A DNA stretch of 64,000 nt. It comes from Verrucomicrobiia bacterium. Lineage in GTDB: Bacteria > Verrucomicrobiota > Verrucomicrobiia > CAIQCK01. A program made the position numbers and the translations under genes. Shown here piece after piece: positions 10,835 to 57,964 of this stretch. Every line of letters begins with the position of its first letter. The first letter of the stretch is position 1. The notes beneath the pieces were generated by a model. It was not told the origin of the DNA, did no database searches, and saw only the letters and a list, made by a program, of their open reading frames with translations. The DNA is taken from positions 1-64,000 of the forward strand of contig JBAYFL010000008.1 of assembly GCA_041667205.1 (NCBI GenBank), given 5' to 3'.

Positions 10835-10933
10835 AAGTAAGCCGCCGCAATGTATCGGCCCCGCCGCAGCATGTCAACGAAACGGGCGAGAAACAGGCTA
10901 TAAGGTTCCTGGTCGAGGCGGTGGCTGAAACAC

Positions 10934-11350
10934 TCAACCGGCCTGCTCGCGCGTCTCCATGCGTAGCAGCCAGACGCTCATCGCCAGCACCGCCATCTCC
11001 ACCACCAGCGTTGTCACGCCGAGCCGTCCGCTGAGCGGCCCGAAACAGCCGCACTCCGGCGACAAGCCGCGCGCCAGCGTCACCACGCCCGCCGCCAGAA
11101 AAACCACCGACATGCCCACCATCAGCGCCAGCGCGCCGGTGCGCCACCGCCCGATGACCGCCAGCACGCCGGCGACGACCTCCCACCACGGCAACAACAC
11201 CGCCACCGTCGGCACGAGCGCGTCCGGCAGCAGATCGTAGTCGGTGATGGCGCGGGCGAACGCAATCGGATCGGCGATCTTCAGCGCGCCCGCAACGATG
11301 TAGATGCCGCCGAGCAACCACAGCGCCACACGTGCCGCGAGAGTTTTCAT
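10934..11350 (-). CDS. MauE/DoxX-like membrane protein
   Basis: Four TM helices with a CGCFG motif in the last third, as in the MauE methylamine-utilisation family. It is the last gene downstream of the kinase operon. Confidence 0.55.
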   Translation of the reverse strand: MKTLAARVALWLLGGIYIVAGALKIADPIAFARAITDYDLLPDALVPTVAVLLPWWEVVAGVLAVIGRWRTGALALMVGMSVVFLAAGVVTLARGLSPECGCFGPLSGRLGVTTLVVEMAVLAMSVWLLRMETREQAG

Positions 11351-11409
11351 TTCGTGGCGCATTTCCGTGTTCGAGAAACACCCCTCGGAGTCGTTGTTTC
11401 GCCTCCAAC

Positions 11410-12546
11410 TCAACCCGGCGGCAGGGTGAACCAGAAGGTGCTGCCTTTGCCGACTTCGCTCTCGAGGCCGATCTGGCCGCCGTGGGTTTCGACGGCAAGT
11501 TTGCAGAAGGTCAGGCCCAGGCCGGTGGAGTGGCGGCGCGCTTCCTTGTCCACCTGGCCGAACTTCTCGAAAACCTTCTTATGATGCTCGGCCGGGATGC
11601 CGGGACCGGTGTCGGTCACGGCCACGCGCGCCATCGAGTCCTTGCGGCTGATGGTGACGGTGATCCGTCCGCCGTCGGGAGTGAACTTGACGGCGTTGCC
11701 AATGAGATTGGCGATGATCCGCTGGAGGACGTCTTTGTCGGCATGGACGCTGAGCGCGCCGGACTGAGACTCGATGCTGAGGCAGCGCTGGCCTTTGAGG
11801 ATGCTGAAGGTGTCCACGACGTCCTTGGCGATGGCGGCCACGTCGCACGCCTGGCGGTTCAGCGGCATCTCGCCGGCTTCCATGCGGCTGACATCCAACA
11901 GGGTGGTGACCATGTCGAGGAGCTTGGCGGTGTGTTTGCCGAGGATGTCAATGTAGCCGACTTCCGACGCGTTGAGCTTGGCGGCGACCTTGACTTTGAT
12001 GAGATCCACATAGCCCGCCATCATCGCCAGCGGCGAACGCAGATCGTGGACGACGAGGTGAACGAGGTTGTCGCGGAGGGTTTCGAGTTCGCGGAGGCGC
12101 TCGTAGTTTTCCTTGAGTTGGCGGTTCTGGCATTCGAGTTCCTTCTGGAGCTGCCGGAGCTTGAGGTGGGTCTCGACGCGGGCGTGGACTTCCTCGAACT
12201 GGAACGGCTTGGTGACGTAGTCCACGCCGCCGAGGCCGAACGCCTTGACCTTGTCCATGGTCTCGTTCAAGGCGCTGATGAAGATGACGGGAATGGAGGC
12301 GAGCTGCGGATCGGCTTTGAGGCGCTTGCAGACTTCGTAGCCGTTGATCTCCGGCATGTTGATGTCGAGGAGGATGAGGTCAGGCGGGTCGCTCTTGGCG
12401 GCCCGGAGGGCCATCTCGCCGCTGGGAACGGGACGGGCCTTGTAGCCGCGGCCTTTGAGCATGCCGTTGAGCAGTTGCAGGTTCTCCGGGGTGTCGTCCA
12501 CGACCAGGATGCTGGGGGTGGCGGCAGGAGTCGGTGTGGGTTGCAT
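11410..12546 (-). CDS. hybrid response regulator-histidine kinase (REC-HisKA-HATPase)
   Basis: N-terminal receiver (ILVVDDTPENL...DLILLDINMP...KPF), coiled coil, H-box VHDLRSPLA, and N/G boxes ([20 protein letters not shown]). Confidence 0.85.
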   Translation of the reverse strand: MQPTPTPAATPSILVVDDTPENLQLLNGMLKGRGYKARPVPSGEMALRAAKSDPPDLILLDINMPEINGYEVCKRLKADPQLASIPVIFISALNETMDKVKAFGLGGVDYVTKPFQFEEVHARVETHLKLRQLQKELECQNRQLKENYERLRELETLRDNLVHLVVHDLRSPLAMMAGYVDLIKVKVAAKLNASEVGYIDILGKHTAKLLDMVTTLLDVSRMEAGEMPLNRQACDVAAIAKDVVDTFSILKGQRCLSIESQSGALSVHADKDVLQRIIANLIGNAVKFTPDGGRITVTISRKDSMARVAVTDTGPGIPAEHHKKVFEKFGQVDKEARRHSTGLGLTFCKLAVETHGGQIGLESEVGKGSTFWFTLPPG

Positions 12547-12552
12547 GGTTTG

Positions 12553-14133
12553 TCAGGGCGCTTCCGGCTGCAGGAGATGCAGCAGCCGTTTGTAATCGAA
12601 CCGTTCCATCAACTGCCGCAACGCCCGCGCGAGCGCGGGATCACGCGGCTCAATGCGGGCGATGAGTTCCAGCAGGTGGTCGAGGTCGGCGTTGATGGCG
12701 GCGCGGCGCATCGCGTCCGTCAGGTCGCGTGGCAGGGCCGCCAACGCGGTGCGTTCGATCTTGGTGGTGGCGCTGGCGGGCGAGGGCGCGATGGTTTCGC
12801 CGGCATAGACATATTTCACGCTGAGGAATTCCCGGATGGTTTCCAGCAGCCGGCCCTCGCGGTAGGGTTTGATGATGAAATCGTCGGCGCCGGCGGCGAG
12901 GATGGCGTTGCGGCTCTCCTGGAAGGCGCTGGCGGTAACAACGATGATCCTGACCGGCGGGGCGTCGGGGCGGGAACGGATGCGGCGAATGACTTCGTAA
13001 CCGTCCACGACCGGCATGCGCAGGTCGAGGAGGATGAGGTCGGGGCGCCACTGCTCGTATAGACGCAGCGCCTCTTCGCCATCGGTGGCTTCCGACGTTT
13101 CAAACCCGACGGTTTTGAGCAGAGTGCGGAGCAGAGTGCGGTTGTCCTCAACGTCATCCGCAATGAGCACTCGATATGTGCGCTGACCCGGCTCCAGCCT
13201 CAGCACGTGACGCAGCTCAGTCTTCTGCGCAACCGCGGACGATTCGCCTTTGGCAATGGCAACATCGAACCGAAAAACGCTGCCTTTGCCGGTCTGGCTG
13301 GTCACGGTGATGTCGCCGCCCATGAGCCGGACGAACTCCCGGCTGATGGCCAGACCCAGGCCCGTGCCGCTGCCGGCGTGGCGTCCGGCGCGGGTCTGCT
13401 CGAACGGGTCGAACAGCCGCTCCATTTCCTCCGGCGCGATGCCCGGCCCGGTGTCCTCGACTTCGATTTTCAGGCGCAGGACGTTGCCTTCCATCGCCTG
13501 CGTCTGCGCACGCAGCGTGATGCCACCTTTATCGGTGAATTTTACGGCGTTGCCCATGAGGTTGATGATCACCTGACGCAGCTTGCTCTCATCGGTGACC
13601 ACGTAACGCGACACCTCGCCGACGCGCTCGATGGAGAAGCACAGTTGTTTGTCGTCGGTCCGCAGGCGGAACATCATCTCCACGTCGTGCAGAAACGCGT
13701 GCAAGTCGAAGGTCGTCGGGTTCAACGTCGTGCGACCGGCTTCGATCCGGGAGACTTCGAGGATGTCGTTGATGAGCGCCAGCAGGTGCTCGCCGCTGCG
13801 GTTGATGGTGTCGAGGTGCTGCCGCTGTTGCGGCGTGAGGACCGGATCGCGCTGCATCAACTGCGAAAAGCCGAGGATGGCGTTCATCGGCGTGCGGATC
13901 TCGTGCGACATGTTCGCCAGGAACACGCTCTTGGCGCGATTGGCCGCCTCGGCGGAGCGCTTGGCATCCTCGAGCTGCTGGATGGATTCCTCCAGCTTCT
14001 TCAGAGCTTTCTCGGCACGCTGCCGCTGGGTGTCGGCGTCCTGCATCATACTCAAAGCGATCCGGCGGGACTTCTCCGGGTCGCTTGAGCGGTCGTCGAG
14101 CCGCCGATCCATATTGTTAACGTTGGAAAGCAT
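12553..14133 (-). CDS. hybrid sensor histidine kinase/response regulator (HisKA-HATPase-REC)
   Basis: Coiled coil, then H-box [13 protein letters not shown] boxes, and a C-terminal receiver ([11 protein letters not shown]...[10 protein letters not shown]). Confidence 0.85.
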
Positions 14134-14148
14134 CGCGTCTCCGCTGGG

Positions 14149-15132
14149 TCACACCTTGCCGGGGCTGCTGGGCGCGCCGGCGGCGGGATTGTCGCGCCGC
14201 CAGACCGGAGGATAGGTGGGCGGACGGTTCAACTCACCGCAAAGCCGGTTCACTTCCTCCTTCAACTCGATCACACGCTCCTCGCGTCCGATCATGGCCC
14301 TGTAGAACGCTTCCAGTTCGGCGGTGCGCTCCTTGACCATTTCTTCGAGGTGATCGCGGTGCTGATTCAACTCATCCTCCGTCCGCTTGCGCTCCGTGAT
14401 GTCCTCAGCCACGGTGAGGATGCATCGCTCTCCACCAAACTCGATCATTTCCGCCGACAATCGCGCGACGTGCGGCTCGGCACGCTTGGAGCGGAAGCGA
14501 GCTTCCACATCGCGATAGCTTCCTTCAGTGATGAGTTTCCGGAAAGCCTGCTCCAGTTCCTGCGGATTGGCCCACAACTCTATTTCCGAGGTCGTCTGCC
14601 CGACCACTTCGTCGCGGCTGTAGCCGGTGTATTGCTCGAACGCCTTGTTGACCTCGATATACCGCCGGTCTTTGAGCGAGACGATGGTCATGATCGTCGG
14701 GCTGGCTTGGAACGCCTTGGAGAATTTCTCCTCGGACTTTTGCAGTTTCCCCTCCGCCTGATGTTTGTAGAGCGCCATCTCGATGACCGTCTTCAGTTCG
14801 CGGTCTTCGAACGGTTTGAGGATGTAACCGAACGGCTCCGTCACCTTCGCGCGCTGCAACGTCGTGTCGTCCGCGTAAGCCGTCAGATACACCACCGGCA
14901 AGTGCCACCGCTGGCGGACCTGCTGCGCGGCTTCGATGCCGTCCATCGCGCCCTCCAGCCGTATGTCCATCAGCACGAGGTCAGGCAGCAGTTGGCCGGC
15001 CAGCGTCAGCGCCTTCTCGCCACTGGGCGCCGAGCCGACCACCTGGCAGCCGAGCAGGTCCAGACGCACTTTCAGGTCGGCAGCCACGATCGGCTCGTCT
15101 TCAACAACTAGAATCCGGGGGTGACTATTCAT
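14149..15132 (-). CDS. response regulator with REC + PAS domains
   Basis: Receiver ILVVEDEPIVAADLK...LVLMDIRLEG...ILKPF, followed by a PAS/PAC region and a Pro-rich tail. It is the near-identical paralog of the N-terminus of the 21957..23087 gene. Confidence 0.8.
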   Translation of the reverse strand: MNSHPRILVVEDEPIVAADLKVRLDLLGCQVVGSAPSGEKALTLAGQLLPDLVLMDIRLEGAMDGIEAAQQVRQRWHLPVVYLTAYADDTTLQRAKVTEPFGYILKPFEDRELKTVIEMALYKHQAEGKLQKSEEKFSKAFQASPTIMTIVSLKDRRYIEVNKAFEQYTGYSRDEVVGQTTSEIELWANPQELEQAFRKLITEGSYRDVEARFRSKRAEPHVARLSAEMIEFGGERCILTVAEDITERKRTEDELNQHRDHLEEMVKERTAELEAFYRAMIGREERVIELKEEVNRLCGELNRPPTYPPVWRRDNPAAGAPSSPGKV

Positions 15133-15137
15133 AAATG

Positions 15138-18100
15138 TTACTCTCCCTGCTTGGCTTGAAACGCAATGTGAAAGGCAACGCCATGGTCTCGTGTAATCTC
15201 AACAGCACCACGCAACTTCTCCACCAACATGAACACCAACTGATGACCCAAGGTTCCGGTCTGGTGAACGTCCAACCCTGACGGCAGGCCCACGCCATCG
15301 TCGGCAACCCTCATAACGATCTGTTCCTGCGGCGTCGTCCGCAACTCGACTTCGATTCGCCCCGCCCGCCCGCCGGGAAACCCGTGTTTGAGCGCGTTGG
15401 AAACCAGTTCGTTGATGATGAGGCCGCACGAAACCGCGCGGTCCAGGTCAATGGCAACATCCTCCAGATGCGGCTCCAGCTTGATGTGCGCGGTCTTCGG
15501 TCCGTAGGAACGGAAGAGATGGCTGCAAATATTCTCGATGTAGTTGGCGAAATTCACGTGCGCCAGGTTCTGCGACCGGTAGAGCGTTTCATGCAACAGG
15601 GCCATGGAACGGACACGATTACCGGTTTCTTGCAAAGTGTCGAGCGCCGCTGTGTTCTTGGTGCGGACTGACTGGAGGCTCAGGAGGCTGATCACGATCT
15701 GGAGGTTGTTCTTCACGCGGTGGTGCACTTCCTTGAGGAGAACGGTTTTCTCCTCGAGGGAGGCCCGAATCTCCTCCTCCGCCCGTTTGTGGGCGGTGAT
15801 GTCGCGTGAAACGCCGACGAGACCGGTAATTTTCCCCGTCTTGTCACGCAACGGCACTTTGGTGGTGGACACCCAAGTCACACGGCCGTCCGGCCAGATT
15901 TCCTTTTCCTCCTTGCCCACCATGGACTCGCCCCGGGCTATCACGCGGCGTTCATCCTCAAGCGCCCCGCGCGCGTGCTCTGGCGCGAAGAAATCGGCAT
16001 CCGTCTTGCCCACGGCTTCGCTCGGATTGCGAAGGCCGAACGACCGGCTCATGGCCTCGTTGATCCGCACGAAGCGGCACTCCAAGTCCTTAAAGTAAAT
16101 GTTGTCGGGGATGGTCGTGATCAGGCTGTTGAGAAGGCTTCGTTCCTGTGCCAGCCCTGCCTCCACCCGCTTGCGTTCTGTGATGTCCTGAACCATCACA
16201 AGGTAATACATCGCCCGTCCTTGCTTGTCACGAATGACCGTGGCCACAGCCGAGCACCACACAATTTCCTTGTCCTTCCGGATGTAGCGCTCCTCTGTGC
16301 GATACACCGGAATATCTCCACGCAGGAGCTTCTCGACAGATTCCACGTCCTGTTTGAGGTGCTCTGGATGGGTAATATCCTTGGCGGTAAAGGAGGTAAG
16401 TTCTTCCTCGGTATAACCCAACATTTCGCAGAACGCGGCGTTGGCCTGGATATAGCGAAAATCCGCGCCCACAATGGCCATGCCGCTCGGGCCTTCTTCG
16501 AAGATCTGGCGGAAGCGTTCCTCGCTTTCGCGCAGCTTCTCTTCCGCGTGCTTGCGCTCGCTGATGTCCCGGCAGTCGGAGAGAATGGTTGGCTTGCCGT
16601 TGAGTTCGAACATGTCGGCGCTGATTTCGACCGGGATTCTCCGTCCGTCCTTGGCAACATGCACTCCTTCCCACAGGGCGTGCTTCTTCTCCTTGAGTTT
16701 CTCCATGATCGCAGGGACGAGAGGAATAAATTCGGGAGTGTCAATGTCGGAAAGGTTCTTCTGGACAAGCTCCTCGCGGCTGTAGCCCAGGCGCTGGCAG
16801 GCCACGTCGTTGACTTCGATGATTCTGCCTGGCAATCCATTGTCCCCCGGTCCCTCGGCGACAAACACCGCGTCATAGCTGCTGTTGAAGAGCAAACGGT
16901 ATCGCTCTTCGCTGGTCCGCAGCGCTTCCTCTGCCAGCTTGCGCCCGGTCACATCCCGGAAGCTCCACACCCGTCCCACCGGCCGGCCCTCGATGCATTG
17001 CGGCAGGGAATAGCGTTCAAAAACCCTGCCATCCTTGAATTCCAGCACGTCAAACCCGGTGACCTCAGGATGGGCATAGAGCTTCTGCACTTTGGCGATG
17101 AAGCCTTCCGGGTCTTTCAGTTGACCCAACATCAATTGGATCGCCTGTTGATCGCGGCCGGCAGTCATCAGATCGCGGTTTCTCCACTCAGGGATGAGAT
17201 CCTTTGGAACCCGCCACATACGGATGAACCGCTCGTTAAAATCCACAATCCGCCCTTGGGGATCCACCACCAAAATCCCGTCTGCTGTGGATTCCAAGGT
17301 GGCTTGCAGGAGCGAAACGGAATGACTGAGCGCCTGCTCTCGCTGCTTGCGCTCGGTGATGTCGCGGGCGATGTGGACGCTCCCGATGAGTTTCCCTTCC
17401 GAATCGCGCAGGGGCGAAACCGTTTCGAGGAAATCACCGCTCAGCCGACTCTCATGAGTTTCTGCGGAGTGCTCAAGACCATCCGCAAGCAATAGCCGGT
17501 GCGGGCAGAACTCCGGCGGATCGTCCACCCCATGGACAAGCGAATGGCACGTCTGCCCGATGCATTTGTTCAGCGTCAGGCCCAACTTGGCCGCCATGGA
17601 CCTGTTGGCGCGAACAATCCGATACTCGTTGTCGAGGATCGCGACAAGGTCCGGCACCGCGTCGAACGTCCGTTCCCAATCCTCTTTGGCTTGAAGGATG
17701 TCGTGTTCCGCCCGCTTTCGCTCGGTGATGTCGCGCGCAATGCTGGACGCGCCCACGATCTCGCCCGCAGCATTCCTGATCGGCGAGATGGTGACGGACA
17801 CGTCAATGATTTTCCCGTCCTTCTTCCGTCGCTTGGTCTCCAGGTGGGTGACGACCTCTCCGCGCTTGATCTTGTCCAGTATCTGCGGCAGTTCGTTGGG
17901 CCGGTCCGCCGGGACCAAAACGGAAAGGGGACATCCGACGATCTCCGCCGCCGCGTAACCGTAGAGCTTCTCCGCTCCCGGATTCCAATTCACGACAACG
18001 CCGTCAAGGGTTTTGCCAACGATGGCGTCTTCCGACGACTCGACGATGGCCGCCAGTCGCGAGATGACTCCTTCGGCCACCCGGCGTCCCCGCCGCATCT

Positions 18101-18473
18101 GCGCCTCCCGTATTTCCCGCTCCACGGCGGGCACGAGGCGGGCCAGATTGCTCTTCATCAGATAGTCGTGCGCGCCCGCCTTCATCATCGTCACGGCGGT
18201 GTCTTCACCAATGGCGCCGGAAACAATCAGAAACGGGATGTCCAGTTCGGCCTTTTGCAACAACGCGAGCGCGGAAGGAGCGTCAAACTGCGGCAGGGAA
18301 TAGTCGCAGATGATGACGTCCCACGATTGCCTGACCAGTGCTGTCTTCATCCCGGCAGCGTCTTCGACCCGTTCCGAACGAACTTCGTAGCCCGCCTTCT
18401 GCAACTTGCGAACCACCAAGTCCGCGTCGCTCTCCGAGTCTTCGATCATCAAGAGGCCGAGCGGCTTGGTCAT
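15138..18473 (-). CDS. multi-PAS sensor histidine kinase with N-terminal receiver (REC-PASn-HisKA_2/HWE-type-HATPase)
   Basis: Start taken at the internal ATG at 18473 (MTKPLGLLMIEDSESD), which gives an ATGA overlap with the upstream response regulator. There are several PAS/PAC repeats. The H-box is HHRVKNNLQIVISLLSLQ (HisKA_2-type) and the C-terminal ATPase is HWE/HATPase_c_2-like. Confidence 0.82.
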   Translation of the reverse strand: MTKPLGLLMIEDSESDADLVVRKLQKAGYEVRSERVEDAAGMKTALVRQSWDVIICDYSLPQFDAPSALALLQKAELDIPFLIVSGAIGEDTAVTMMKAGAHDYLMKSNLARLVPAVEREIREAQMRRGRRVAEGVISRLAAIVESSEDAIVGKTLDGVVVNWNPGAEKLYGYAAAEIVGCPLSVLVPADRPNELPQILDKIKRGEVVTHLETKRRKKDGKIIDVSVTISPIRNAAGEIVGASSIARDITERKRAEHDILQAKEDWERTFDAVPDLVAILDNEYRIVRANRSMAAKLGLTLNKCIGQTCHSLVHGVDDPPEFCPHRLLLADGLEHSAETHESRLSGDFLETVSPLRDSEGKLIGSVHIARDITERKQREQALSHSVSLLQATLESTADGILVVDPQGRIVDFNERFIRMWRVPKDLIPEWRNRDLMTAGRDQQAIQLMLGQLKDPEGFIAKVQKLYAHPEVTGFDVLEFKDGRVFERYSLPQCIEGRPVGRVWSFRDVTGRKLAEEALRTSEERYRLLFNSSYDAVFVAEGPGDNGLPGRIIEVNDVACQRLGYSREELVQKNLSDIDTPEFIPLVPAIMEKLKEKKHALWEGVHVAKDGRRIPVEISADMFELNGKPTILSDCRDISERKHAEEKLRESEERFRQIFEEGPSGMAIVGADFRYIQANAAFCEMLGYTEEELTSFTAKDITHPEHLKQDVESVEKLLRGDIPVYRTEERYIRKDKEIVWCSAVATVIRDKQGRAMYYLVMVQDITERKRVEAGLAQERSLLNSLITTIPDNIYFKDLECRFVRINEAMSRSFGLRNPSEAVGKTDADFFAPEHARGALEDERRVIARGESMVGKEEKEIWPDGRVTWVSTTKVPLRDKTGKITGLVGVSRDITAHKRAEEEIRASLEEKTVLLKEVHHRVKNNLQIVISLLSLQSVRTKNTAALDTLQETGNRVRSMALLHETLYRSQNLAHVNFANYIENICSHLFRSYGPKTAHIKLEPHLEDVAIDLDRAVSCGLIINELVSNALKHGFPGGRAGRIEVELRTTPQEQIVMRVADDGVGLPSGLDVHQTGTLGHQLVFMLVEKLRGAVEITRDHGVAFHIAFQAKQGE

Positions 18474-18925
18474 TGCGACCTCACTTTCGGCGGCGGCTCG
18501 TTCAAGCCCTGCCAATACGCGCCCAACAGTTTGATGGCGGCGTCGAACTGCACAAAATCCACCTGTTTGCGGATGTAGCTGTTGACGCCGAGATCGTAGG
18601 CGGCCGCCACATCCTGTTCTTCCTTCGAGGAGGTGAGGATGATCACGAGCAGACGGCGGGTGCGCTTGTTGGCGCGGACCCGGCGCAAGACCTCCAAGCC
18701 GTCCACTTTGGGCAGCTTGAGATCGAGCAAGATCAGGACGGGCAGTTGGGACACGTCACGCCCAGCGTGCATGCCGCCTCCGAACAGGTAATCCAGCGCC
18801 TCCTGGCCATCCTCGACCACCACGAGTTTGCTGGTGATGCAAGCCCGTTGCAGCGCCCGCTGGGTCAGAGCGACATCGCTCGGATTATCTTCGACAAGCA
18901 AGATGGTTTCTGACGTATCACTCAT
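18470..18925 (-). CDS. single-domain response regulator (CheY-like receiver)
   Basis: 151 aa: ILLVEDNPSDVAL...LILLDLKLPKVDGLEVL...KPVDF. ATGA overlaps at both ends. Confidence 0.85.
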   Translation of the reverse strand: MSDTSETILLVEDNPSDVALTQRALQRACITSKLVVVEDGQEALDYLFGGGMHAGRDVSQLPVLILLDLKLPKVDGLEVLRRVRANKRTRRLLVIILTSSKEEQDVAAAYDLGVNSYIRKQVDFVQFDAAIKLLGAYWQGLNEPPPKVRSQ

Positions 18926-21390
18926 GACGTTTCATCCAGCGTGAAGTAGAAAGTTGTGCCCTGATTCACCTGCGCCTCGGCCCATATCCGGCCTCCGTGG
19001 CGCTGAATGATGCGCTGCACGGTGGCCAGTCCAATGCCTGTGCCCGGAAATTCCGAGGCTTTGTGCATGCGTTGAAACGCGCCAAACAGTTTCTTGGCGA
19101 AAGCCATATCAAAACCCGCGCCATTGTCACGCACGAAATAGGCCGGGCGGTCCTTCACATACGTCAGCCCAAACTCAATGCGTGCCGCAGGCCGCTTGCT
19201 GGTAAACTTGACGGCGTTACCCAGCAGGTTGGTCAGCGCGATCCTCAGCAACCGCTCATCGCCCTGGCCCGTCAGCCCCTGCTGGATCACAAACTCCAGT
19301 TGCCGGTGCGGCAAGTCTTCCTGCAACCGGAGGACGATGCTCTCTGCCAGACCGGTAAGGTCCACGGGATTCGGCCGCATCTCGGCGCGAGTCACGCGGG
19401 ACAGCTTCAGCAGGTCGTCAATCAACTGGCCCATGCGTTGTGTTTCAGCACGGATGCGGCTCAGGTATTGGCGCGCACGCTCGTCCAGCCGCCCACTGTA
19501 GTCCTCCAACAACGCCAAGCTCCAGCCGTCAATGCCGCGCAACGGCGCCGTCAGGTCGTGCGACACCGAGTAAGCGAAGCTTTCCAACTCTTGGTTGGCG
19601 ACGGCAAGCTGGATGGTGCGATCCGCCACGCGTTGCTCCAGTTCCGTGTTGAGTTTGCGGATCTCCTCTTCCGCCAGTTTGCGGCCGGTAATGTCGAAGT
19701 TCACGCCCACGACATTGGTGACCTGACCTTTCTCGTCGGCGATCACACTCGCGGCCGCCTGGATGTGGCGGACCGTGCCGTCGCTCGCGCGAATGATGCG
19801 AAAGTTGAAGTATCCCGCCTTCTTCTCTGTGACAGCCCGGCGCATCTGGCGTTCGACCTGGGTCACGTCTTCCGCGTGGATCATCTCCGCCCATCGCGGG
19901 TAGGTCATGGGTTCTGTCATGAGAAGGCCATACATCTCGAACATCCGGTCGTCCCATGTGACCGCGTTGGAGATGACATCCCATTCCCAAACGCCCATCA
20001 CCGCGGCCTCAGTGGCCAGCGCCAGACGATGGCTGTAGGCCCGCAACTCTTGCTCCGCCTGTTTGCGCTCGGTGATGTCCACCAGAATGGACGCGATGAT
20101 GCCGGGGCCGGTCCGGAAAACGCGCACGTCGTAGAACCCGAAAACGCGCTCGTCCTTGTAGGGCATTTCGAAAGCCTGCGGTCCCAGTTCACCCCGGGCC
20201 ACTTTGCGGTGGATTTCAAGGATCTCCGTGTCCCGGAGGTTTGGGAACACTTCCTCGATTGTTTCTCCGACCAAATTCCGGTGATCCCTGCCGATGATGC
20301 GTCCGGCCGCCGGATTCGTTCCGGTGAGCAACAAACGCGAGTCGGATTCAAGGCGGTAGAAGTGCATCGCCGCGGGTGAAGATTCCACGATACTGCGGAA
20401 CTTCTCTTCCGACTCCCGCAGTGCTTCCTCAGCCCGTTGGCGTTCTGTAATCTCTTGCTTCAGTCCGTCGTTGGCCCGCGCCAAATCGGCGGTGCGCTCC
20501 AGAACACGGTGTTCCAGCGAGGCTTGCATCGTCCGCAACTGTTCAAACAGTTTGTCGAAGGCGACGCTGAGCACGTCAATCTCGTCACGCTCGTCCATCT
20601 CCTGCGGCGTCATCCGCGAAATCTCTGACGTGGCAGCGATTTCCCGGATGTGCCGCGCCATCAGCGACAACCGCCGCGACACCACGAGGTGGAACGCAAT
20701 GATGATCAGCCCGAACAGGAAGGCCAGCCACGTGGCCATGACCATCTGTTTCCAGCTCATCTCGGAAGCCATGGCCAAAGCCACCGTTTCAACGGGGATC
20801 GCAACCGTATCCAGTCCCGCCACGTCCCCGACCTCCCGGTGGAAGCCCGCCGTCGCGCCATATTGCTTCACCAACGCGGCGGGTGCGTCCTTCGGGTCGC
20901 CGTGGCAGCGCATACATTCCGCTTTCATCCGCCGAACCTTGAACTGCGCGACATAGCGCTGGCCGTTGATCTGAATCTGTTCGGTCTTCTGGCTGACTGT
21001 GGGGTTTCGGCGGAAGAAATCAATGGCCTGCAGTTCTTGCGGGGTGGCCTGATTGACCGGATTGCGTGGATTGTCGGAGACAAAACGAACGATGTAGCCG
21101 GGAAACTTCTTCTGGACTTTCTCGAAGACGCTTTGCGAGACGAACATGGGCGACATCATTTCGGGGATGTATTCCTTATTGCCCACAATCCTCTGGATGA
21201 CCGGGTGCATTGTCTCGGAAACGTATTCGCGGATGGCCAGGTTGAACTCCATCGCCATCGCTGCCTGCTGGCCAACCCGGTCGCTGGCGTGATGCTGACT
21301 CGTCACGTAGGTTTCGCGAAAAATAAAAATCGAGAACAGGATGGCGACGATGCCAAACGGCAGGAGAAACCGCATCGCGATGCTTCTCAT
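18922..21390 (-). CDS. sensor histidine kinase with periplasmic CXXCH (heme-c, Tll0287/DUF3365-like) sensor domain, PAS domains, HisKA, HATPase
   Basis: An N-terminal TM helix, then an extracytoplasmic domain of about 190 aa containing KAECMRCHGDPKD (CXXCH), then a second TM helix, HAMP-like and PAS/PAC modules, H-box SHDLTAPLRGI, and N/G boxes. Confidence 0.8.
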   Translation of the reverse strand: MRSIAMRFLLPFGIVAILFSIFIFRETYVTSQHHASDRVGQQAAMAMEFNLAIREYVSETMHPVIQRIVGNKEYIPEMMSPMFVSQSVFEKVQKKFPGYIVRFVSDNPRNPVNQATPQELQAIDFFRRNPTVSQKTEQIQINGQRYVAQFKVRRMKAECMRCHGDPKDAPAALVKQYGATAGFHREVGDVAGLDTVAIPVETVALAMASEMSWKQMVMATWLAFLFGLIIIAFHLVVSRRLSLMARHIREIAATSEISRMTPQEMDERDEIDVLSVAFDKLFEQLRTMQASLEHRVLERTADLARANDGLKQEITERQRAEEALRESEEKFRSIVESSPAAMHFYRLESDSRLLLTGTNPAAGRIIGRDHRNLVGETIEEVFPNLRDTEILEIHRKVARGELGPQAFEMPYKDERVFGFYDVRVFRTGPGIIASILVDITERKQAEQELRAYSHRLALATEAAVMGVWEWDVISNAVTWDDRMFEMYGLLMTEPMTYPRWAEMIHAEDVTQVERQMRRAVTEKKAGYFNFRIIRASDGTVRHIQAAASVIADEKGQVTNVVGVNFDITGRKLAEEEIRKLNTELEQRVADRTIQLAVANQELESFAYSVSHDLTAPLRGIDGWSLALLEDYSGRLDERARQYLSRIRAETQRMGQLIDDLLKLSRVTRAEMRPNPVDLTGLAESIVLRLQEDLPHRQLEFVIQQGLTGQGDERLLRIALTNLLGNAVKFTSKRPAARIEFGLTYVKDRPAYFVRDNGAGFDMAFAKKLFGAFQRMHKASEFPGTGIGLATVQRIIQRHGGRIWAEAQVNQGTTFYFTLDETS

Positions 21391-21484
21391 AGTCCAACCT
21401 CCTCAACATCCGCAATCACCCGGCGGAATGGCCACGTCATTGCAACTCGAAACATTTCCACGACTCTCCATGTGGCGCCATGAG

Positions 21485-21934
21485 CTACTGTTTCCATTTG
21501 GGCAACGGCAACTCGTTCAGCAACAGCCAGTAAAAACCCAGTTGCTGGACAGCTTCCGTGAATTCGGTGAAGTCCACCGGTTTGCGAACGTAACTGTTCG
21601 CGCCCAAGCTGTAGCTCTGGGTCAGGTCTTGCTCTTCCTGCGACGAGGAAAGAATGACGACTGGCAGGAGCCGGGTCCGCTCATCGGCGCGGATGCGGCG
21701 GAGCACGTCCAACCCCGATACCTTGGGCAGCTTCAGGTCCAAAAACACGACCGCAGGCATCTGGGTCGTGTCGCGTTTGGCGTGGACGCCGGTGCCATAG
21801 AGATAGTCCAAGGCCTCGGCCCCGTCCCTCACCACCACGAGCTTGTTGATCAGGTTGATCTTGGTGAACACGCGTTTGACAAGTTGTTCGTCGTCAGCGG
21901 TGTCCTCGACCAAAAGGATCGTTGTGCCTTTCAT
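21485..21934 (-). CDS. single-domain response regulator (CheY-like receiver)
   Basis: 149 aa and a paralog of 18470..18925 (ILLVEDTADDEQL...VVFLDLKLPKVSGLDVL). Confidence 0.85.
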   Translation of the reverse strand: MKGTTILLVEDTADDEQLVKRVFTKINLINKLVVVRDGAEALDYLYGTGVHAKRDTTQMPAVVFLDLKLPKVSGLDVLRRIRADERTRLLPVVILSSSQEEQDLTQSYSLGANSYVRKPVDFTEFTEAVQQLGFYWLLLNELPLPKWKQ

Positions 21935-21956
21935 GTTGTTGACTCCTTCCTATGTG

Positions 21957-23087
21957 TCATGCCGGTGGAGGCAAGGTAAAGAAAAACGTCGCGCCCTGAC
22001 CCAGCGCGCCCTCCGCCCGCACCTTGCCGCCGTGCCGGTGAATGATGCGTTGCACCGTGGCCAGGCCGATGCCCGAACCGGGAAACTCGCTGGTGGTGTG
22101 CAACCGCTGGAACGCGCCGAAGAGTTTGTCCGCGTAGGCCATCTCGAAACCCGCGCCATTGTCGCGGACGAAATACTCGGTCGGGCCTTCCGCCTGACGC
22201 GAGACACCAAACTCGACGCGGGCACTGGCCTGCTTGCCCGTGAACTTCCATGCGTTGTCCAGCAGGTTCTCCAACGCCACCCGCAGCAGACGTTCATCGC
22301 CAATGACTTCCAGCCCGGCCGGGCAGCGAAACTCGACCTCGCGTTTCGGCCCGCGCTCGCGAAGCTCCGCCACGACCGTCTGCGCCAGCGCGCTCAGGCT
22401 GACCTTCTCCCGGCGCATTTCCCTGCGCGACGTGTGGGAGAGCGCCAGCAAGCCGTCTATCAACTGGCCCATGCGCTGGGCTGCCGCCCGGATGCGCTGA
22501 AGGTAATCCTTCGCCTGCTGGTCGAACTTGTCGCCCCAGTCATCGAGCAGCGCCTTGCTGAAACCGTCCATCGCCCGCAGCGGCGCCCGCAAATCGTGCG
22601 AGACCGAGTAGGAAAACGACTCGATCTCTTTCATCGCGGTCTGCAATTCCGACGTGCGTTCGAGGACGCGCTGTTCGAGCGTCTCGTTCAACCGACGGAT
22701 TTCTTCCTCCGTCTGATGTTTGTAGAGCGCCATTTCGATAACCGTCTTCAATTCGCGGTCTTTGAACGGTTTGAGAATGTAACCGAACGGCTCCGTCACC
22801 TTGGCCCGCTCCACCGTCGTGTCATCCGCGTAGGCCGTCAGATACACCACCGCCAGATGCCACCGCTGCCGCATCTGCTGCGCTGCCTCGATGCCGTCCA
22901 TCGCCCCTTCCAACCGGATATCCATCAACACCAAGTCGGGCAACATTTGTCCCGCCAGCGTCAAGGCTTTCTCGCCACTGGACGCTGAGCCGACCACCTT
23001 GCAGCCCAGCATCTCCAGACGCATCTTCAGGTCGGCCGCCACGATGGGCTCGTCTTCAACAACCAGGACTCGCGCTTGCTCATTCAT
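21957..23087 (-). CDS. hybrid response regulator-histidine kinase (REC-HisKA-HATPase)
   Basis: The receiver is nearly identical to that of 14149..15132, and is followed by H-box SHDLRAPLRAM and N/G boxes. It overlaps the upstream kinase stop by 4 nt. Confidence 0.85.
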   Translation of the reverse strand: MNEQARVLVVEDEPIVAADLKMRLEMLGCKVVGSASSGEKALTLAGQMLPDLVLMDIRLEGAMDGIEAAQQMRQRWHLAVVYLTAYADDTTVERAKVTEPFGYILKPFKDRELKTVIEMALYKHQTEEEIRRLNETLEQRVLERTSELQTAMKEIESFSYSVSHDLRAPLRAMDGFSKALLDDWGDKFDQQAKDYLQRIRAAAQRMGQLIDGLLALSHTSRREMRREKVSLSALAQTVVAELRERGPKREVEFRCPAGLEVIGDERLLRVALENLLDNAWKFTGKQASARVEFGVSRQAEGPTEYFVRDNGAGFEMAYADKLFGAFQRLHTTSEFPGSGIGLATVQRIIHRHGGKVRAEGALGQGATFFFTLPPPA

Positions 23088-25417
23088 AAACGTTCTTCTC
23101 CGTATTTTGCCTGAAACGCGATGCGAAAGACAGTCCCTTGATTCTGGCCCACATCCACCGTGCCGTGCAACTTCTCCGCCAGCATGAACACCAACTGATG
23201 ACCCAGAGTGCTCGTCTGGCGGATATCCTGTCCCGGAGGCAAGCCCACGCCGTCATCAGCAACCTTCAAAACAACATGGCCTTCCGGTGTCGCCTGCAAT
23301 TCGACCGCGATCTTCCCAGGTCGTCCGCCGGGAAAGGCGTGTTTCAGCGCGTTGGAAACCAGTTCGTTAACGATCAGGCCGCAAGAGACCGTCTGGTCCA
23401 AGTCAATGGCTACGTTCTCCAAATGTGGCTCCAGCTTGATATGCGCTGCCTTCGGCCCGTAGGAGCGAAAGAGGTGGCTGCATACATCCTCGATGTAGTG
23501 GGCGAAGTTCACTCGCGCCAGGCTTTGCGAAAGGTAAAGCGTTTCATGCAGCAGGGCCATCGAGCGGACGCGATTGGCGGTTTCCTGCATGGCATCGAGC
23601 GCCTCCGGGTTCTTGATGCGCACGGCATGGAGGTTCAGGAGGCTGATCACGATTTGAAGGTTATTCTTCACGCGGTGATGCACCTCTTTCAAGAGGACGG
23701 TCTTCTCCTTGAGAGAAGCCCGGATCGCATCCTCCGCCCGCTTCTGTTCGGTAATGTCCTGCACGGTGCCCGCGGATCGAATGGGCCGGCCTTGTGAATC
23801 ATAGAAGGTTTCCGCCCGCTCGCGGACATGTTTCACCCGACCATCCGGCATGAGCAGACGATGCGTGATGTCGTAGGGGATCTTGTTGTTGACCGAATCA
23901 TCGAAGGTCTGTTGAACCATTTCCCTGTCTTCCGGGTGGACTGCCTTCCGAAACACCTCATACAATGCACCGGGAACCCCGTGGTCCACCTCGAAAATGC
24001 GATAGATCTCATCCGTCCAGATCAGCTTGCTGGTGACGAGGTCCGCCTCCCAACTGCCGATGTGTCCGATGCGCTGGGCTTCAATCAGGCGCGCTTCGCT
24101 CGTCCGTAACGCCTCCTCAACCCGCTTGCGCTCGGTGACGTCGCTCAACACACCATCCGTGCTCATCAGATGCCCCTCCTCACAAACCGGCATCCAGCGG
24201 TCTTCGATGCACTTCAGAGTTCCGTCTTTGCAGCGCCACCATTCCTCGTCACGAATCGCGACCCTGTCCGCCGGCTGCAGTTTCAACTGCTCAAACCGTC
24301 TCTTCTGCTCGTCAAATCTTCCCTTGTAGATCACCCGTGACAAGAAAACGACGCGCCCTCCCATGTTCTGGATGTCTTCCAAGGTGTATCCGAACATCTT
24401 CTCAAACGCCGGGCTGAGGTAGCGAAACTCGTGCGTCCGCGCATCCACGCTGTAGATCGCATCCTCAATGTGCGCGGCGATTCGTTGGAACTTCTCCTCA
24501 CTCTCGCGCAACGCCGCCTCAATCCGCTTGCGATCGGTGATGTTGAACAGCGTGGTCCGGCTCGCCACAAAGTTGCCCTTGTCATCCTGAATGGCCGTCG
24601 AGTTCAGCAACACCGGCAGCACCGTGCCGCCTTTCCGAATCAACTCCGTCTCGATGTCGCTAACCCACCCGCGCTCCTTCAGCACGGGAAATGTCCGCTC
24701 GTAAACCTGCAAGCCCGCGGGCGTGAGCAGGTCGGTCAGTTTCATCTTCCCGACGACCTCCTCCCGTTCATACCCGATCCACTTGAGTTCGGTGTCATTG
24801 ATCCGGATGAAGACGCCCTCTTTGTCCAGCGAGTGATAGCCGCACGGCGCGTTGTCGTAGAGGTCCTGGATAACCCGGGACGATTCCTTCAGCAGTTCCT
24901 CCGCCTGCTTGCGTTCGGTGATGTCCTGGACCGTGCCGATGAACCGCGTGGGCCGGCCCGTCACAGAATCACAAACGAACTCGGCATGTTCGTGGACGAT
25001 GCGCCCCGCCCCGTCGGGACGCAGAATGCGGTGTTCAACATCATAGCGTTTATGTTCGCGGAGCGCCGTTTGGACTTCGGCCCACACCCTGGCCCGATCT
25101 TCCGGCGCAATGGCGTTGCCAAACAATTCATGTGTCACCTGCACCGCGCCCGGCTCGTAACCGAAAATGCGGAACGTTTCATCCGACCACCACAGCGAAT
25201 TCTGCGAGAAGTCATCCGGGTTTCGCAACTCCGCCTCCCAACTGCCCACGTGCGCGATGCGTTGCGCGGCGGCCAGGTGGGTTTCGGTGCGGCGCACTGC
25301 CTCCTCGGCTCGCTTGCGTCTGGAAAACCCCTTCTTAATCTTGAAGGCTGCCCGGTTCGGTCGAGACGAAGGAGTCTCTCGCAAAACGCTTCCGCCGGCT
25401 TTGGATGAAGCCTTCAT
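23084..25417 (-). CDS. multi-PAS sensor histidine kinase (HisKA_2/HWE-type), paralog of 15138..18473
   Basis: PAS/PAC repeats, then HHRVKNNLQIVISLLNLH and a C-terminus about 85% identical to the other PAS kinase. The start is uncertain: the ATG at 25417 is chosen to avoid overlapping the divergent GH78 gene, though the ORF extends to 25783. Confidence 0.75.
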   Translation of the reverse strand: MKASSKAGGSVLRETPSSRPNRAAFKIKKGFSRRKRAEEAVRRTETHLAAAQRIAHVGSWEAELRNPDDFSQNSLWWSDETFRIFGYEPGAVQVTHELFGNAIAPEDRARVWAEVQTALREHKRYDVEHRILRPDGAGRIVHEHAEFVCDSVTGRPTRFIGTVQDITERKQAEELLKESSRVIQDLYDNAPCGYHSLDKEGVFIRINDTELKWIGYEREEVVGKMKLTDLLTPAGLQVYERTFPVLKERGWVSDIETELIRKGGTVLPVLLNSTAIQDDKGNFVASRTTLFNITDRKRIEAALRESEEKFQRIAAHIEDAIYSVDARTHEFRYLSPAFEKMFGYTLEDIQNMGGRVVFLSRVIYKGRFDEQKRRFEQLKLQPADRVAIRDEEWWRCKDGTLKCIEDRWMPVCEEGHLMSTDGVLSDVTERKRVEEALRTSEARLIEAQRIGHIGSWEADLVTSKLIWTDEIYRIFEVDHGVPGALYEVFRKAVHPEDREMVQQTFDDSVNNKIPYDITHRLLMPDGRVKHVRERAETFYDSQGRPIRSAGTVQDITEQKRAEDAIRASLKEKTVLLKEVHHRVKNNLQIVISLLNLHAVRIKNPEALDAMQETANRVRSMALLHETLYLSQSLARVNFAHYIEDVCSHLFRSYGPKAAHIKLEPHLENVAIDLDQTVSCGLIVNELVSNALKHAFPGGRPGKIAVELQATPEGHVVLKVADDGVGLPPGQDIRQTSTLGHQLVFMLAEKLHGTVDVGQNQGTVFRIAFQAKYGEERL

Positions 25418-25565
25418 TGGGTTCCGCAGGTTGCCATGCGCTAGCCTTAACGAAAACGAAAAAACGGCAAGCTTAATCTGCCTGTCGTTTCCGGCCGGCT
25501 TGTTTCGCGCTCCCTTGTCTTCCGTCGGATTGACTTGGCAAAGGCGGGCGGGTATTCGATGAAGC

Positions 25566-28110: not shown

Positions 28111-28728
28111 ATGGCAGCGACGAACGACATCTCCGTGACAGACCTGCTGGCGCGCGCGCGGACCGGCGATGAGCGCGCGGCGAACGAGCTTTTCGCGCGC
28201 TGCCGCAACTACCTCGCCGTCGTCGCGCGGGCGCAAGTTGAGAGCTGGCTTCGCGCCAAGGCTGACGCCTCCGACCTCGTGCAGGAAACGCTCGTGGAGG
28301 CGAACCGTGACCTCCGGCAGTTCCGCGGCACGACCGAGGCCGAGTGGCTCGCGTGGCTCCGGCAAATCCTCTCCCGCAACGCCGCCGATTTCGTCCGACG
28401 TTATCGCGGCACCGACAAACGCCAGCAGCGGCTCGAAGTTCCGCTCGCGCCACTGCCAGATCACTCGTCGCTCGCCGCCGGCCTCGAGCCGCGCGACACC
28501 GGCGAAACGCCGACGCAACAAATCATGCGGCTGGAGCGCGAGATTCAGATCGCCGACGCGCTCACGCGGCTGGAGCCGGATTACCAGGAGATCATCATCC
28601 TGCGAAACCTGGAGCGGCTGCCGTTCGAGGAGGTCGCGCAGCGCATGAACCGCTCCCGCCCCGCCGCGCAGATGCTCTGGATGCGCGCGGTGAAGAAATT
28701 GCATGAGGAGATGAAACGTGGCGGCTGA
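28111..28728 (+). CDS. ECF-type sigma-70 family sigma factor
   Basis: Region 2 (DASDLVQETLVEANRDLRQFRG) and a region 4 HTH (QEIIILRNLERLPFEEVAQRMNRSRPAAQMLWMRAVKKL). It overlaps the downstream kinase gene by 11 nt. Confidence 0.82.
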   Translation: MAATNDISVTDLLARARTGDERAANELFARCRNYLAVVARAQVESWLRAKADASDLVQETLVEANRDLRQFRGTTEAEWLAWLRQILSRNAADFVRRYRGTDKRQQRLEVPLAPLPDHSSLAAGLEPRDTGETPTQQIMRLEREIQIADALTRLEPDYQEIIILRNLERLPFEEVAQRMNRSRPAAQMLWMRAVKKLHEEMKRGG

Positions 28729-31484: not shown

Positions 31485-31875
31485 GTCGAAGCGGAGGATA
31501 GCACCAAGCGCACGTTGTGTCTCGCTTCGTCAATCTTGTGCCATCATTCTCGGCATTGACCGATTCCTCGACATGTGCCGCACGACGCTCAACGTCACCG
31601 GCGACCTAGTCTGCGCAGTCGTCGCCGCCCGCGGCGAGCAGCAGCCGACGACGTAGCGACACGGCCAGCCCGGTCTCAGAAACTCCTGCAAGAACTGCAA
31701 GAACTGGAAGTTGCATTCTGCCATCGGCGCGTTATCCTCGCGCCTGTCATCACCGCAAGCTGCAAGCAGTCAGGGCCAGTGAAGCCGCCCGCGGACGCAA
31801 AGAATCGCAAAAACCAACCGCTCCGTGGCGCGTTGTCTTCCGACATCCGGACCGTTTGCAGCGCCACGAAAAGGA

Positions 31876-33842: not shown

Positions 33843-33978
33843 CCGCGGACGTCGCTGCCGGATTGGGGCGGTAGGGGATCCTCCCTAGGATGGGTAGTGA
33901 AAATTCCCCAATCCGAAACGGGCGCGCCCCTCATTGTGCCGGGAGCGTGTCAGCCTGTAGCGTCTGGCAGTTAGAAAG

Positions 33979-41250: not shown

Positions 41251-41384
41251 AAATCCATTGTTGCGAGTTGAGTTTGCTCTTGCGCCGCGCAACCGGCGCA
41301 GCGCCATCGTTTGTCCGCCAGCCTGAAAAACTAAGCCATCGCCAAATCAAAGGCGAGATGAAAGCTCAGATCCTCCGCGGTTGG

Positions 41385-42569: not shown

Positions 42570-42636
42570 GGTGTTTCTCTCCTACTGACGACCGTCGTTG
42601 CTCCTGCGCTTGCGGAAGGAAAACGTCTTCATCGGG

Positions 42637-44901: not shown

Positions 44902-44914
44902 CGCATTCTCCTTC

Positions 44915-46540: not shown

Positions 46541-46578
46541 GTTTCCTTCCGTGTGTTCCGTGTCTTCCGTGGTTCTCT

Positions 46579-51019: not shown

Positions 51020-51027
51020 GGCGGTTC

Positions 51028-52488: not shown

Positions 52489-52497
52489 GATCGTATC

Positions 52498-54015: not shown

Positions 54016-54100
54016 CTCGTCACCTCTGGAGTTGTGGCAGCGCTGAACGGCTTCCGTCGCGGCGGCAGATTATGCCTGCTGCACGGCACTTTGAAAACCT

Positions 54101-56614: not shown

Positions 56615-56644
56615 CTCTCACGCCCGGCTGAGGTGGAGTTTGCT

Positions 56645-57952: not shown

Positions 57953-57964
57953 GGTGGGTGTTCC

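Follow-up and report, generated by a model that had tools for sequence, protein, structure and literature searches.

A conserved, probably co-transcribed multi-kinase cluster in uncultured Verrucomicrobiia with a predicted output outside the cluster

Introduction

In Leptospira, LvrA phosphorylates the receiver of LvrB, upon which the coiled coil of the linker forms and the catalytic domains are freed; LvrB in turn passes phosphate to LvrC, in which a receiver and an anti-sigma domain are joined (PMC5863495, PMC13269768). Here we describe a cluster of ten two-component and membrane protein genes at positions 10934-25417 of a 64,000-nucleotide stretch of DNA from a Verrucomicrobiia bacterium (contig JBAYFL010000008.1, assembly GCA_041667205.1), hereafter called the window. 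The genes are numbered g1 to g10 in minus-strand order, from 25417 to 10934. We propose, with a probability that we put at roughly 55%, that they encode a phosphorelay network of several kinases, which is conserved, probably co-transcribed and composed of three cognate modules that recur in other phyla, with its output outside the cluster.

The cluster resembles the Lvr pathway in having probably co-operonic cytoplasmic kinases without a DNA-binding domain. Two further points of likeness are predicted for the cluster, namely a kinase that phosphorylates the N-terminal receiver of the next kinase (Rec-DHp-CA) and a last step whose target is a receiver-fused effector that does not bind DNA and is encoded elsewhere. 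Against the LvrA model, g2, g4, g8 and g9 gave partial matches, and so did the receiver of g6 against the LvrB model. However, the best scores against NF047465 and NF047466 were 221.6 versus 1200 bits and 96.2 versus 500 bits, and since these are far under the NCBIfam cut-offs, the cluster proteins are not Lvr orthologues. The cluster also differs in its periplasmic haem sensor, in its roughly 12 PAS domains and in having nine genes rather than two, and it belongs to a verrucomicrobium rather than a spirochaete; no RsbW-like LvrC was found here.

The kinase cores of g2 and g4 carry the H-box SHDL-x-APLR, which we take to be typical of Cph1-type kinases. As with Cph1 and Rcp1, a receiver gene directly follows a kinase gene, and among solved structures g3 and g5 are closest to Rcp1, RcpA and RcpB; for g5, the nearest were those of bacteriophytochrome response regulators, RcpA/RcpB and Rcp1 (5ic5, 5brj, 1k68, 1i3c, 1k66; E 1e-22 to 1e-40). 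The inputs are different, as g4 has a haem-c Cache domain and g2 a receiver in place of PAS-GAF-PHY, and a third, receiver-fronted gene follows in the cluster. Since no GAF or PHY domain was found by Pfam in g1 to g9, the cluster does not qualify as a phytochrome two-component system.

The Tll0287-like family has been reclassified in a 2026 preprint as a haem-c Cache domain (sCache_heme), with CxxCH in about 99% of its members; a signalling-type member without an axial Cys binds nitric oxide (NO) tightly, with a slow off-rate like that of H-NOX and NosP and forms no stable O2 complex (PMC12889525). A characterised sCache_heme receptor has the architecture Cache_heme-HAMP, no enzymatic output and a partner Ser/Thr kinase (bioRxiv 10.64898/2026.05.25.727664). 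The g4 protein is like these receptors in having CxxCH between two transmembrane (TM) helices and in lacking the axial Cys that stand-alone members have, the Cluster 2 configuration (PMC12889525), but it is a complete histidine kinase. Surface attachment in Caulobacter is controlled by the LovK/SkaH/SpdS-SpdR network (PMC6530869). In this network and in the alphaproteobacterial HWE/HisKA_2 stress networks, as in the cluster, there are several HisKA_2/HWE and HisKA kinases, with single-domain receivers integrating cues. Their genes are scattered and the pathways end in the DNA-binding SpdR or in PhyR-NepR-EcfG, whereas the genes described here are contiguous and include no PhyR or NepR.

Composition of the cluster

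The window lies on a metagenome contig of 360 kb (ENA ERZ27249449, k141_32193), and its species-level relatives in GTDB are uncultured Verrucomicrobia metagenome-assembled genomes (MAGs) only, from lake water and groundwater. Domains were called with Pfam, curated family names were checked against NCBIfam and RNA families against Rfam; NCBIfam gave only partial matches below thresholds for the cluster proteins. The homologous loci compared with the window are labelled L003-L008, L025-L031, L036 and L037.

The open reading frame listing and Pfam agreed on ten consecutive minus-strand genes in the domain order given by a preliminary description of this DNA (Table 1). That description counted four kinase cores and six receivers, a count that has to be raised to six and seven, respectively. 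The H-boxes of all six kinases are intact. The g2, g4, g8 and g9 proteins exceeded the Pfam cut-offs for both HisKA and HATPase_c, with the H-boxes SHDL, SHDL, SHEIR and VHDL, respectively. In the alignment every receiver (7/7) retained the acidic pocket, the Asp, the Thr/Ser and the Lys, and the Response_reg scores were 48-100 bits.

HWE kinases are said, after Karniol and Vierstra in 2004, to combine an HWE_HK DHp domain with a W-x-E signature in the G1 box. The g1 and g6 kinases had been labelled HWE-type, and this label was not borne out: they scored 95.5 and 96.3 bits for HisKA_2 (PF07568; cut-off 22.3), with an H-box of the HHRVKNNLQ type, versus 24 bits for HWE_HK, just over the cut-off, and their G1 box reads DDGVGLP.

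Two of the kinases, g2 and g9, consist of REC-HisKA-HATPase and nothing more, which is the Rec-DHp-CA layout of the LvrB prototype; in g6, PAS domains sit between the receiver and the kinase core. The only membrane proteins of the cluster are g4 (two TM segments) and g10 (four). No TM segment was found in g1, whose H-box HHRVKNN is at residue 580. The public gene call puts the start of g1 at 25297 (737 aa) versus 25417 (777 aa) here; the latter is backed by the L003 and L007 orthologues, which are 88-95% identical over residues 1-777. About 12 PAS domains of the cluster are cytoplasmic, and none of the cluster PAS domains contains the LOV-type NCRF motif. The g7 protein has neither an enzymatic nor a DNA-binding domain by Pfam. 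As described earlier, the cluster lacks a DNA-binding output domain, none being detected by Pfam in any of g1 to g10 (10/10 proteins). Five of the six kinase genes directly precede a gene that is, or starts with, a receiver, g9 being the sole exception.

Table 1. Genes of the cluster, its non-coding regions and candidate output genes (window positions; domains in N- to C-terminal order)
Feature	Position	Strand	Domains or content	Description	Source
g1	23084-25417	-	PAS x4, HisKA_2, HATPase	cytoplasmic sensor kinase, 777 aa	Pfam
g2	21957-23087	-	REC, HisKA, HATPase	receiver-controlled kinase, 376 aa	Pfam
g3	21485-21934	-	REC	single-domain receiver, phytochrome response regulator type	Pfam
g3-g4 spacer	21391-21484	-	94 nt	only gap with room for an internal promoter	
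g4	18922-21390	-	TM1, Tll0287-like (CMRCH), TM2, weak HAMP, PAS x2, HisKA, HATPase	membrane sensor kinase, 822 aa	Pfam
g5	18470-18925	-	REC	single-domain receiver, phytochrome response regulator type; ATGA overlap on each side	Pfam
g6	15138-18473	-	REC, PAS x5-6, HisKA_2, HATPase	receiver-controlled kinase, 1111 aa	Pfam
g7	14149-15132	-	REC, PAS, C-terminal coiled coil		Pfam
g8	12553-14133	-	coiled coil, HisKA, HATPase, REC, helical tail of ~70 aa	hybrid kinase	Pfam
g9	11410-12546	-	REC, HisKA, HATPase	receiver-controlled kinase, 378 aa	Pfam
g10	10934-11362 (or 11413)	-	MauE family, four TM		Pfam
Upstream region	25418-25565	-		common to g1 and a divergent rhamnosidase gene	
Hpt	42637-43014	-	Hpt (E=1.6e-14), HTIKGS motif	stand-alone; candidate relay partner of g8	Pfam
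RP1	41385-42569	-	Response_reg (76 bits), AAA_31/ParA/BcsQ	REC-ParA/MinD-type ATPase	
RP2	40009-41250	-	Response_reg (121 bits), AAA_31/ParA/BcsQ	REC-ParA/MinD-type ATPase	

Conservation and spacing of the genes

Orthologues of g4 with 80-91% identity were found in six Verrucomicrobia MAGs, and gene order and spacing were the same in five of them. A more distant sister lineage carries g2-g4-g5-g6-g7-g8-g9, with g7 to g9 75-86% identical. The arrangement is thus not due to chance, since the order and spacings recur in five species-level MAGs and the sister lineage. The cluster is preserved between flanks that differ in L007, L004/L005 and the sister lineage, suggesting that it moves as a unit. 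Membership varies at some positions: g1 has been reduced by deletion to a remnant of 49 aa in L004 and is missing from L005, and g3 is absent in L008 and in the sister-lineage contig from ERZ1426827. Because g1, g3 and the MauE gene are each absent in some relatives, the conserved core is g2 together with g4 to g9.

A different arrangement was observed in L026 (2375-5688), where a g1-like kinase is joined straight to g7-g8-g9 and g2 to g6 are missing in comparison with L031 and the 52-kb contig of ERZ1426827. Another contig, which encodes a g8 protein identical to that of L026, carries g2-g4-g5-g6-g7-g8-g9 and begins exactly at the g1|g2 junction. The g1|g7 junction of L026 is either a real deletion through recombination between paralogous junctions or a repeat-induced mis-assembly.

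The gaps from g1 to g10 are -4, 22, 94, -4, -4, 5, 15, 6 and 47 nt, and 159 nt separate g10 from the next gene, of the LOG family. All three of the ATGA overlaps described earlier (23084-23087, 18922-18925 and 18470-18473) were read directly in the sequence. In five relatives the spacing is -4, 22, 93-99, -4, -4, 5, 15-33 and 6 nt, the three 4-nt overlaps being kept in all five. Since the spacing is conserved across species, the co-directional, tightly packed genes and conserved overlaps fit a single transcription unit with translational coupling. No terminator-like site was found by the terminator scan in any intergenic gap of the cluster, including the g3-g4 spacer; the counts of the sigma-70 promoter and terminator scans were at the shuffled expectation (three promoters found, 3.8 expected), and these scans carry little weight. 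The top sigma-70-like match in the 19 kb scanned was TTGACA-17-TACATT at 10849-10877 (minus strand), in the gap between g10 and the LOG gene; this promoter-like site ahead of the LOG gene fits a signalling unit that ends at g10. No riboswitch or small RNA family of Rfam reached the gathering threshold anywhere in the window.

The g3-g4 spacer leaves the single transcript open to doubt, because it is conserved and could hold an internal promoter. In the six-species alignment its mean column identity is 78%, with conserved TGGAAA..TT and ACAAC blocks. It contains a near-palindrome, GGAAACGTTTCC in the relatives and GGAAATGTTTCG in the window, which may serve as an operator or belong to an internal promoter. 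About 70 nt preceding the start of g1 are also conserved among the window, L003 and L007, although the flank differs, and a weak hairpin with a T-run lies at 25484-25466 in the upstream region.

The g7 and g8 genes are in frame, separated by one stop codon and a 15-nt spacer (14134-14151) in every genome examined, including L003-L007 and L026. This could reflect an old fission of a REC-PAS-HK-REC gene, or be a coincidence. The stop codon of g7 differs among the genomes (TGA, TAG or TAA), the spacer encodes a ribosome-binding site, and g8 and g9 are equally in frame; these points speak against reading g7 and g8 as one split gene. No fused g7-g8 homologue was present among the best 120 relatives of g8.

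Kinase-receiver modules

Module A consists of g4, g5 and g6. The sensor domain of g4 is Tll0287-like (PF11845, DUF3365; E=4e-33, 115 bits versus a cut-off of 24.1), contains CMRCH at residues 159-163 and is flanked by two TM-like segments (residues about 3-30 and about 213-245). Its periplasmic part has no cysteines other than residues 159 and 162 of the CxxCH motif, so that the axial Cys is absent. The g4 protein thus has the sequence features of sCache_heme, i.e., the PF11845 match, the CxxCH motif and an extracytoplasmic site. Since its configuration is of the signalling type (Cluster 2), our best guess for the cue of g4, by analogy, is NO or redox state.

The two single-domain receivers of the cluster, g3 and g5, are paralogues with 58% identity. 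Module A recurs in loci of Chloroflexia, Anaerolineae, Myxococcales and Cellvibrionaceae. In these loci a PAS/GAF or Cache kinase with a like HisKA core is followed by a g3/g5-like receiver (53-73% identity) and then by a gene with a g6-like REC-PAS start. The C-terminal part encoded by this third gene varies between HK-REC, an HD-GYP-type HD domain and GGDEF-EAL. Since only the output is exchanged, behind a kinase gene, a small receiver gene and a receiver front that are all kept, the comparison argues that the module A kinase signals to both the small receiver and the receiver-fronted protein.

Module B, a HisKA_2 kinase followed by a PhyR-type receiver, occurs twice, as g1-g2 and as g6-g7. 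Direct DNA repeats located 7955 nt apart cover the g1|g2 and g6|g7 junctions, with 77-87% nucleotide identity. The identity between g1 and g6 is 79.5% in the DHp domain, 73% in the CA domain and 30% in the PAS region, and the receivers of g2 and g7 are 88% identical in amino acids and 85% in nucleotides. The g7 receiver resembles PhyR-type receivers, and g2 is a mosaic of a g7-like receiver and a g4-like kinase core (60% identical). In the identity matrices the paralogues group by gene, not by genome, suggesting that the duplication predates the species split; the g1-g2/g6-g7 duplication is, by these matrices, old and conserved. Ongoing gene conversion was considered and rejected, as orthologues were always closer than paralogues and paralogue identity within a genome was not above that between genomes. 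Because the interaction helices are near-identical after an old duplication, the two sensors g1 and g6 probably converge on the same receivers (g2 and g7) without insulation. The C-terminal coiled-coil tail of g7 is nearly invariant in six species.

Module C consists of g8 and g9. The g8 kinase has no sensor domain and starts with a conserved coiled coil. Homologues with about 59-62% identity are abundant in Planctomycetes and Verrucomicrobia and usually carry PAS or CHASE8/HAMP sensors. In the planctomycete Lacunimicrobium album a REC-SpoIIE gene follows the g8-type kinase, and its receiver is 72% identical to that of g9; in L037, a g9-like REC-HisKA-HATPase protein with 55-60% identity over its whole length follows a g8-type kinase. 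Across these two loci the receivers share 60-72% identity with that of g9. Since the kinase and the receiver front are kept while the output is swapped, these loci support the step from g8 to the g9 receiver as a cognate one. In the L. album locus (L036, 15628-18634), a type II CRISPR-Cas system (Cas9, Cas1, Cas2) was also observed about 4-5 kb downstream of the g8 homologue and REC-SpoIIE; it is probably unrelated.

The helical tail of g8 has a motif shared by four of the five homologues fetched. The possibility of a hidden Hpt or DNA-binding domain was rejected, as there was no Pfam hit and no His in the tail is conserved among the orthologues. When the 104-aa tail alone served as the query, a word-indexed search for homologues gave no hits and missed even the protein itself, which we read as a limit for short queries. 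Single-sequence AlphaFold gave five short helices with a pLDDT (predicted local distance difference test) of 55, too poor for a fold search.

The MauE-family gene

MauE proteins can substitute for DsbB in E. coli, for which a CXC motif is required, according to a 2026 preprint (bioRxiv 10.64898/2026.03.05.709764). The g10 protein belongs to MauE (PF07291; E=2.6e-25, 89.6 bits versus a cut-off of 27) and is like these disulfide-forming membrane proteins in its four TM-like segments and its CGC active-site motif, found at residue 104 and conserved in L004 and L005. It differs in having no adjacent MauD, methylamine dehydrogenase or thioredoxin-fold partner, and in ending a signalling cluster, in part of the lineage only. 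Its neighbours are a kinase gene and the LOG-family gene, so that the locus is not a mau cluster. The preliminary description had the cluster end in a MauE-like protein; this is true of the window and of L003-L005, but the gene is not a constant member, being absent after g9 in L007, L025, L026 and L031, i.e., in half of the loci whose cluster end is visible. We regard it as an accessory or hitch-hiking gene rather than the end of the pathway. A link between g10 and the thiol chemistry of the periplasmic haem sensor of g4 is speculation.

Candidate outputs and neighbouring genes

The preliminary description placed the final effector outside the cluster. This is most likely right, as g9 has no following receiver gene and a stand-alone histidine phosphotransfer (Hpt) gene and two REC-ParA genes, RP1 and RP2, lie 17 kb away in the window and next to g9 in the sister lineage. 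The receivers of RP1 and RP2 are canonical, with the phospho-acceptor Asp visible in the sequence, and both genes are co-operonic with Hpt; the three-gene unit (40009-43014) is conserved in L027-L031. No curated family was matched above its cut-off by this combination of a receiver with a ParA-type ATPase. A metagenome scan for REC-ParA relatives gave eight loci, with one informative long contig. In the sister lineage (L025, L031) the unit is placed tail-to-tail against g9, with Hpt a few kb from g9. Farther on come a REC-GerE gene and a Tad/Flp locus, which comprises genes for two Flp pilins, DUF362, RcpC/CpaB and a secretin as well as a CpaE/TadZ-like gene. Because the unit adjoins g9 in the sister lineage, the leading candidate for the output is a relay from the g8 receiver through Hpt to REC-ParA, or a direct step from g9 to REC-ParA. 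The parts that a phosphorelay would use are the hybrid kinase g8, the Hpt with its HTIKGS motif and the two REC-ParA proteins, which are adjacent in the sister lineage only.

A DNA-binding regulator encoded just outside had been named in the preliminary description as a sign against its reading. Such regulators do lie nearby, but they are paired with their own kinases. An extracytoplasmic function (ECF) sigma factor gene (28111-28728, plus strand) is located 2.7 kb upstream, divergent from the cluster and beyond the rhamnosidase gene; it overlaps a Ser/Thr kinase gene (28718-30361), and the two are likely a kinase-regulated ECF pair. A NarL-type system (31825-34683, plus strand), 6-9 kb upstream of g1, consists of a CHASE3-HisKA_3 kinase followed by two REC-GerE regulators. 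Neither the ECF nor the REC-GerE regulators are conserved beside the cluster.

A large polysaccharide-desulfation locus typical of Verrucomicrobia occupies about 44900-60800 of the window; besides an array of at least nine sulfatases it encodes a fucosidase, an NHL-repeat protein and a CxxCxxCC protein. The rhamnosidase, fucosidase and sulfatase genes of the window fit a lake-water or groundwater lifestyle.

Discussion

The anatomy of the cluster most plausibly corresponds to serial cascades of receiver-controlled kinases, two or three in series, in the manner of the Leptospira Lvr pathway. The preliminary description spoke of a branched phosphorelay; a phosphorelay is retained here, and the anatomy favours serial cascades of three modules over simple branching. 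In other respects that description proved largely accurate, and its reading of an operon that lacks a DNA-binding output and acts on an effector elsewhere is reasonable and has gained comparative support. In the proposed mechanism, g4 would sense a periplasmic signal, probably NO or redox, through covalently bound haem c, and would phosphorylate g5 and the N-terminal receiver of g6. The HisKA_2 kinases g6 and g1 would phosphorylate the PhyR-type receivers of g7 and g2, the coiled-coil protein g7 may control the sensor-less hybrid kinase g8, and g8 would phosphorylate the receiver of g9. In g2, g6 and g9, phosphorylation of the N-terminal receiver would free the catalytic domain, as for LvrB, and the cytoplasmic PAS domains, about 12 in number, would feed in further inputs. 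The signal would then exit through g9, through g8 and the stand-alone Hpt, or both, to receivers encoded elsewhere, the best candidates being the two REC-ParA/MinD ATPases, possibly tied to the control of a Tad/Flp pilus or of surface attachment. The MauE gene, at the 3' end in some lineages, would encode a DsbB-like thiol oxidase. The gene anatomy, the domains, the intact phospho-acceptor residues, the paralogies, the recurrence of the modules and the conserved order and spacing are observed; co-transcription, every phosphotransfer arrow, the NO signal and the output are what we infer from the sequence.

A more specific version of this mechanism, which we regard as quite doubtful, would lead from NO or redox at g4 through a closed, partly cross-wired cascade of receiver-controlled kinases and the Hpt to the two REC-ParA/MinD ATPases, which would position or gate Tad/Flp pili. 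In this version g4 would act on g6, g6 or g1 on g2 and g7, and g2 back on g3, g5 and the g6 receiver; phosphorylated g7 would switch on g8, and g8 would activate g9.

Several points weigh against the proposed network. Every arrow in it rests on adjacency and family-level pairing. NO sensing has been established for one signalling-type haem-Cache member only, in a preprint (PMC12889525). The conserved 94-nt spacer between g3 and g4 may have its own promoter, and since g1, g3 and g10 are dispensable in some relatives, the network has no fixed set of parts. For the g8 tail, the structure model is of low confidence and the homologue search was empty. On the output side, the Hpt/REC-ParA genes are separated from the cluster in the window by 17 kb of unrelated genes, their adjacency to g9 is seen in one sister lineage only, and a tad locus is absent from the window, where 44-64 kb is occupied by the sulfatase array.

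Some of the same observations could be explained by a passive pile-up of independent two-component modules, brought together by tandem duplication and recombination, with their own unlinked targets and neither an integrated function nor a common transcript. This explanation is unlikely in our view, yet it has the most in its favour among the alternatives: the modules occur separately in other phyla, duplication is evident, g1, g3 and g10 have been lost in some relatives, L026 has g1 joined directly to g7-g8-g9, and the 94-nt spacer could hold a promoter. A pile-up does not account for the order and exact spacing of g2 and g4 to g9, which are kept at 75-95% protein identity between different flanks, and the three stop/start overlaps and the gaps of 5, 6 and 15 nt leave no room for promoters. 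Moreover, in three of the six kinases a receiver is the sole leading domain, so that they need an upstream kinase, and the interaction surfaces of the paralogues have been conserved rather than diverged.

Two further readings assign the cluster to known types of output. The absence of an output domain in g3 and g5, together with the pilus locus near the cluster in the sister lineage, would suit CheY-like proteins that bind a motility apparatus directly. We consider this chemotaxis-like role very unlikely, since no CheA, CheW, MCP (methyl-accepting chemotaxis protein), CheB or CheR was present among the annotated genes of the cluster and the DNA on either side (about 0-52 kb of the window), and since g5 scored 139 bits for phytochrome-associated regulators versus 39 bits for CheY. 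The least probable of all is a partner switch like that of the general stress response, in which the HisKA_2 kinases would control the ECF sigma factor at 28111-28728 via PhyR-like receivers. It would make use of g1 and g6 as HisKA_2 kinases, of the nearby ECF gene and of the g2 and g7 receivers, which resemble the PhyR receiver (PhyR structures, and PRK09191 at 96 bits, below the cut-off). However, the PhyK and PhyR family scores are far under the curated cut-offs, that for PhyR (96 versus 240 bits) covering the receiver part only. Within the cluster, Pfam detected a sigma-like domain on none of the receiver proteins, and a NepR-like gene was not seen either. The ECF gene overlaps the gene of a Ser/Thr kinase, which is its likely own regulator, and the ECF flank is absent from L007 and the sister lineage. 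Hence, the conserved phosphorelay network of three modules is the reading that we prefer.

Every component of this network comes from a known family, other phyla are known to have large two-component clusters that lack DNA-binding outputs, and kinase-to-kinase cascades without a transcription-factor output have characterised precedents; the result is therefore useful as annotation rather than surprising. Signal transduction has hardly been studied in Verrucomicrobia, and the cluster is a compact and conserved test bed for it. One locus holds three LvrB-type receiver-controlled kinases, paralogous kinase-receiver pairs whose interaction surfaces survived duplication, and a full histidine kinase headed by the newly described haem-c Cache domain, a candidate NO sensor. 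If the wiring proposed here is true, the cluster would show how kinase-to-kinase cascades combine a gas or redox cue from the periplasm with the inputs of many PAS domains, and how such a network reaches a non-transcriptional output. The cross-wired version, if true, would provide a transcription-independent path from NO to surface attachment in Verrucomicrobia.

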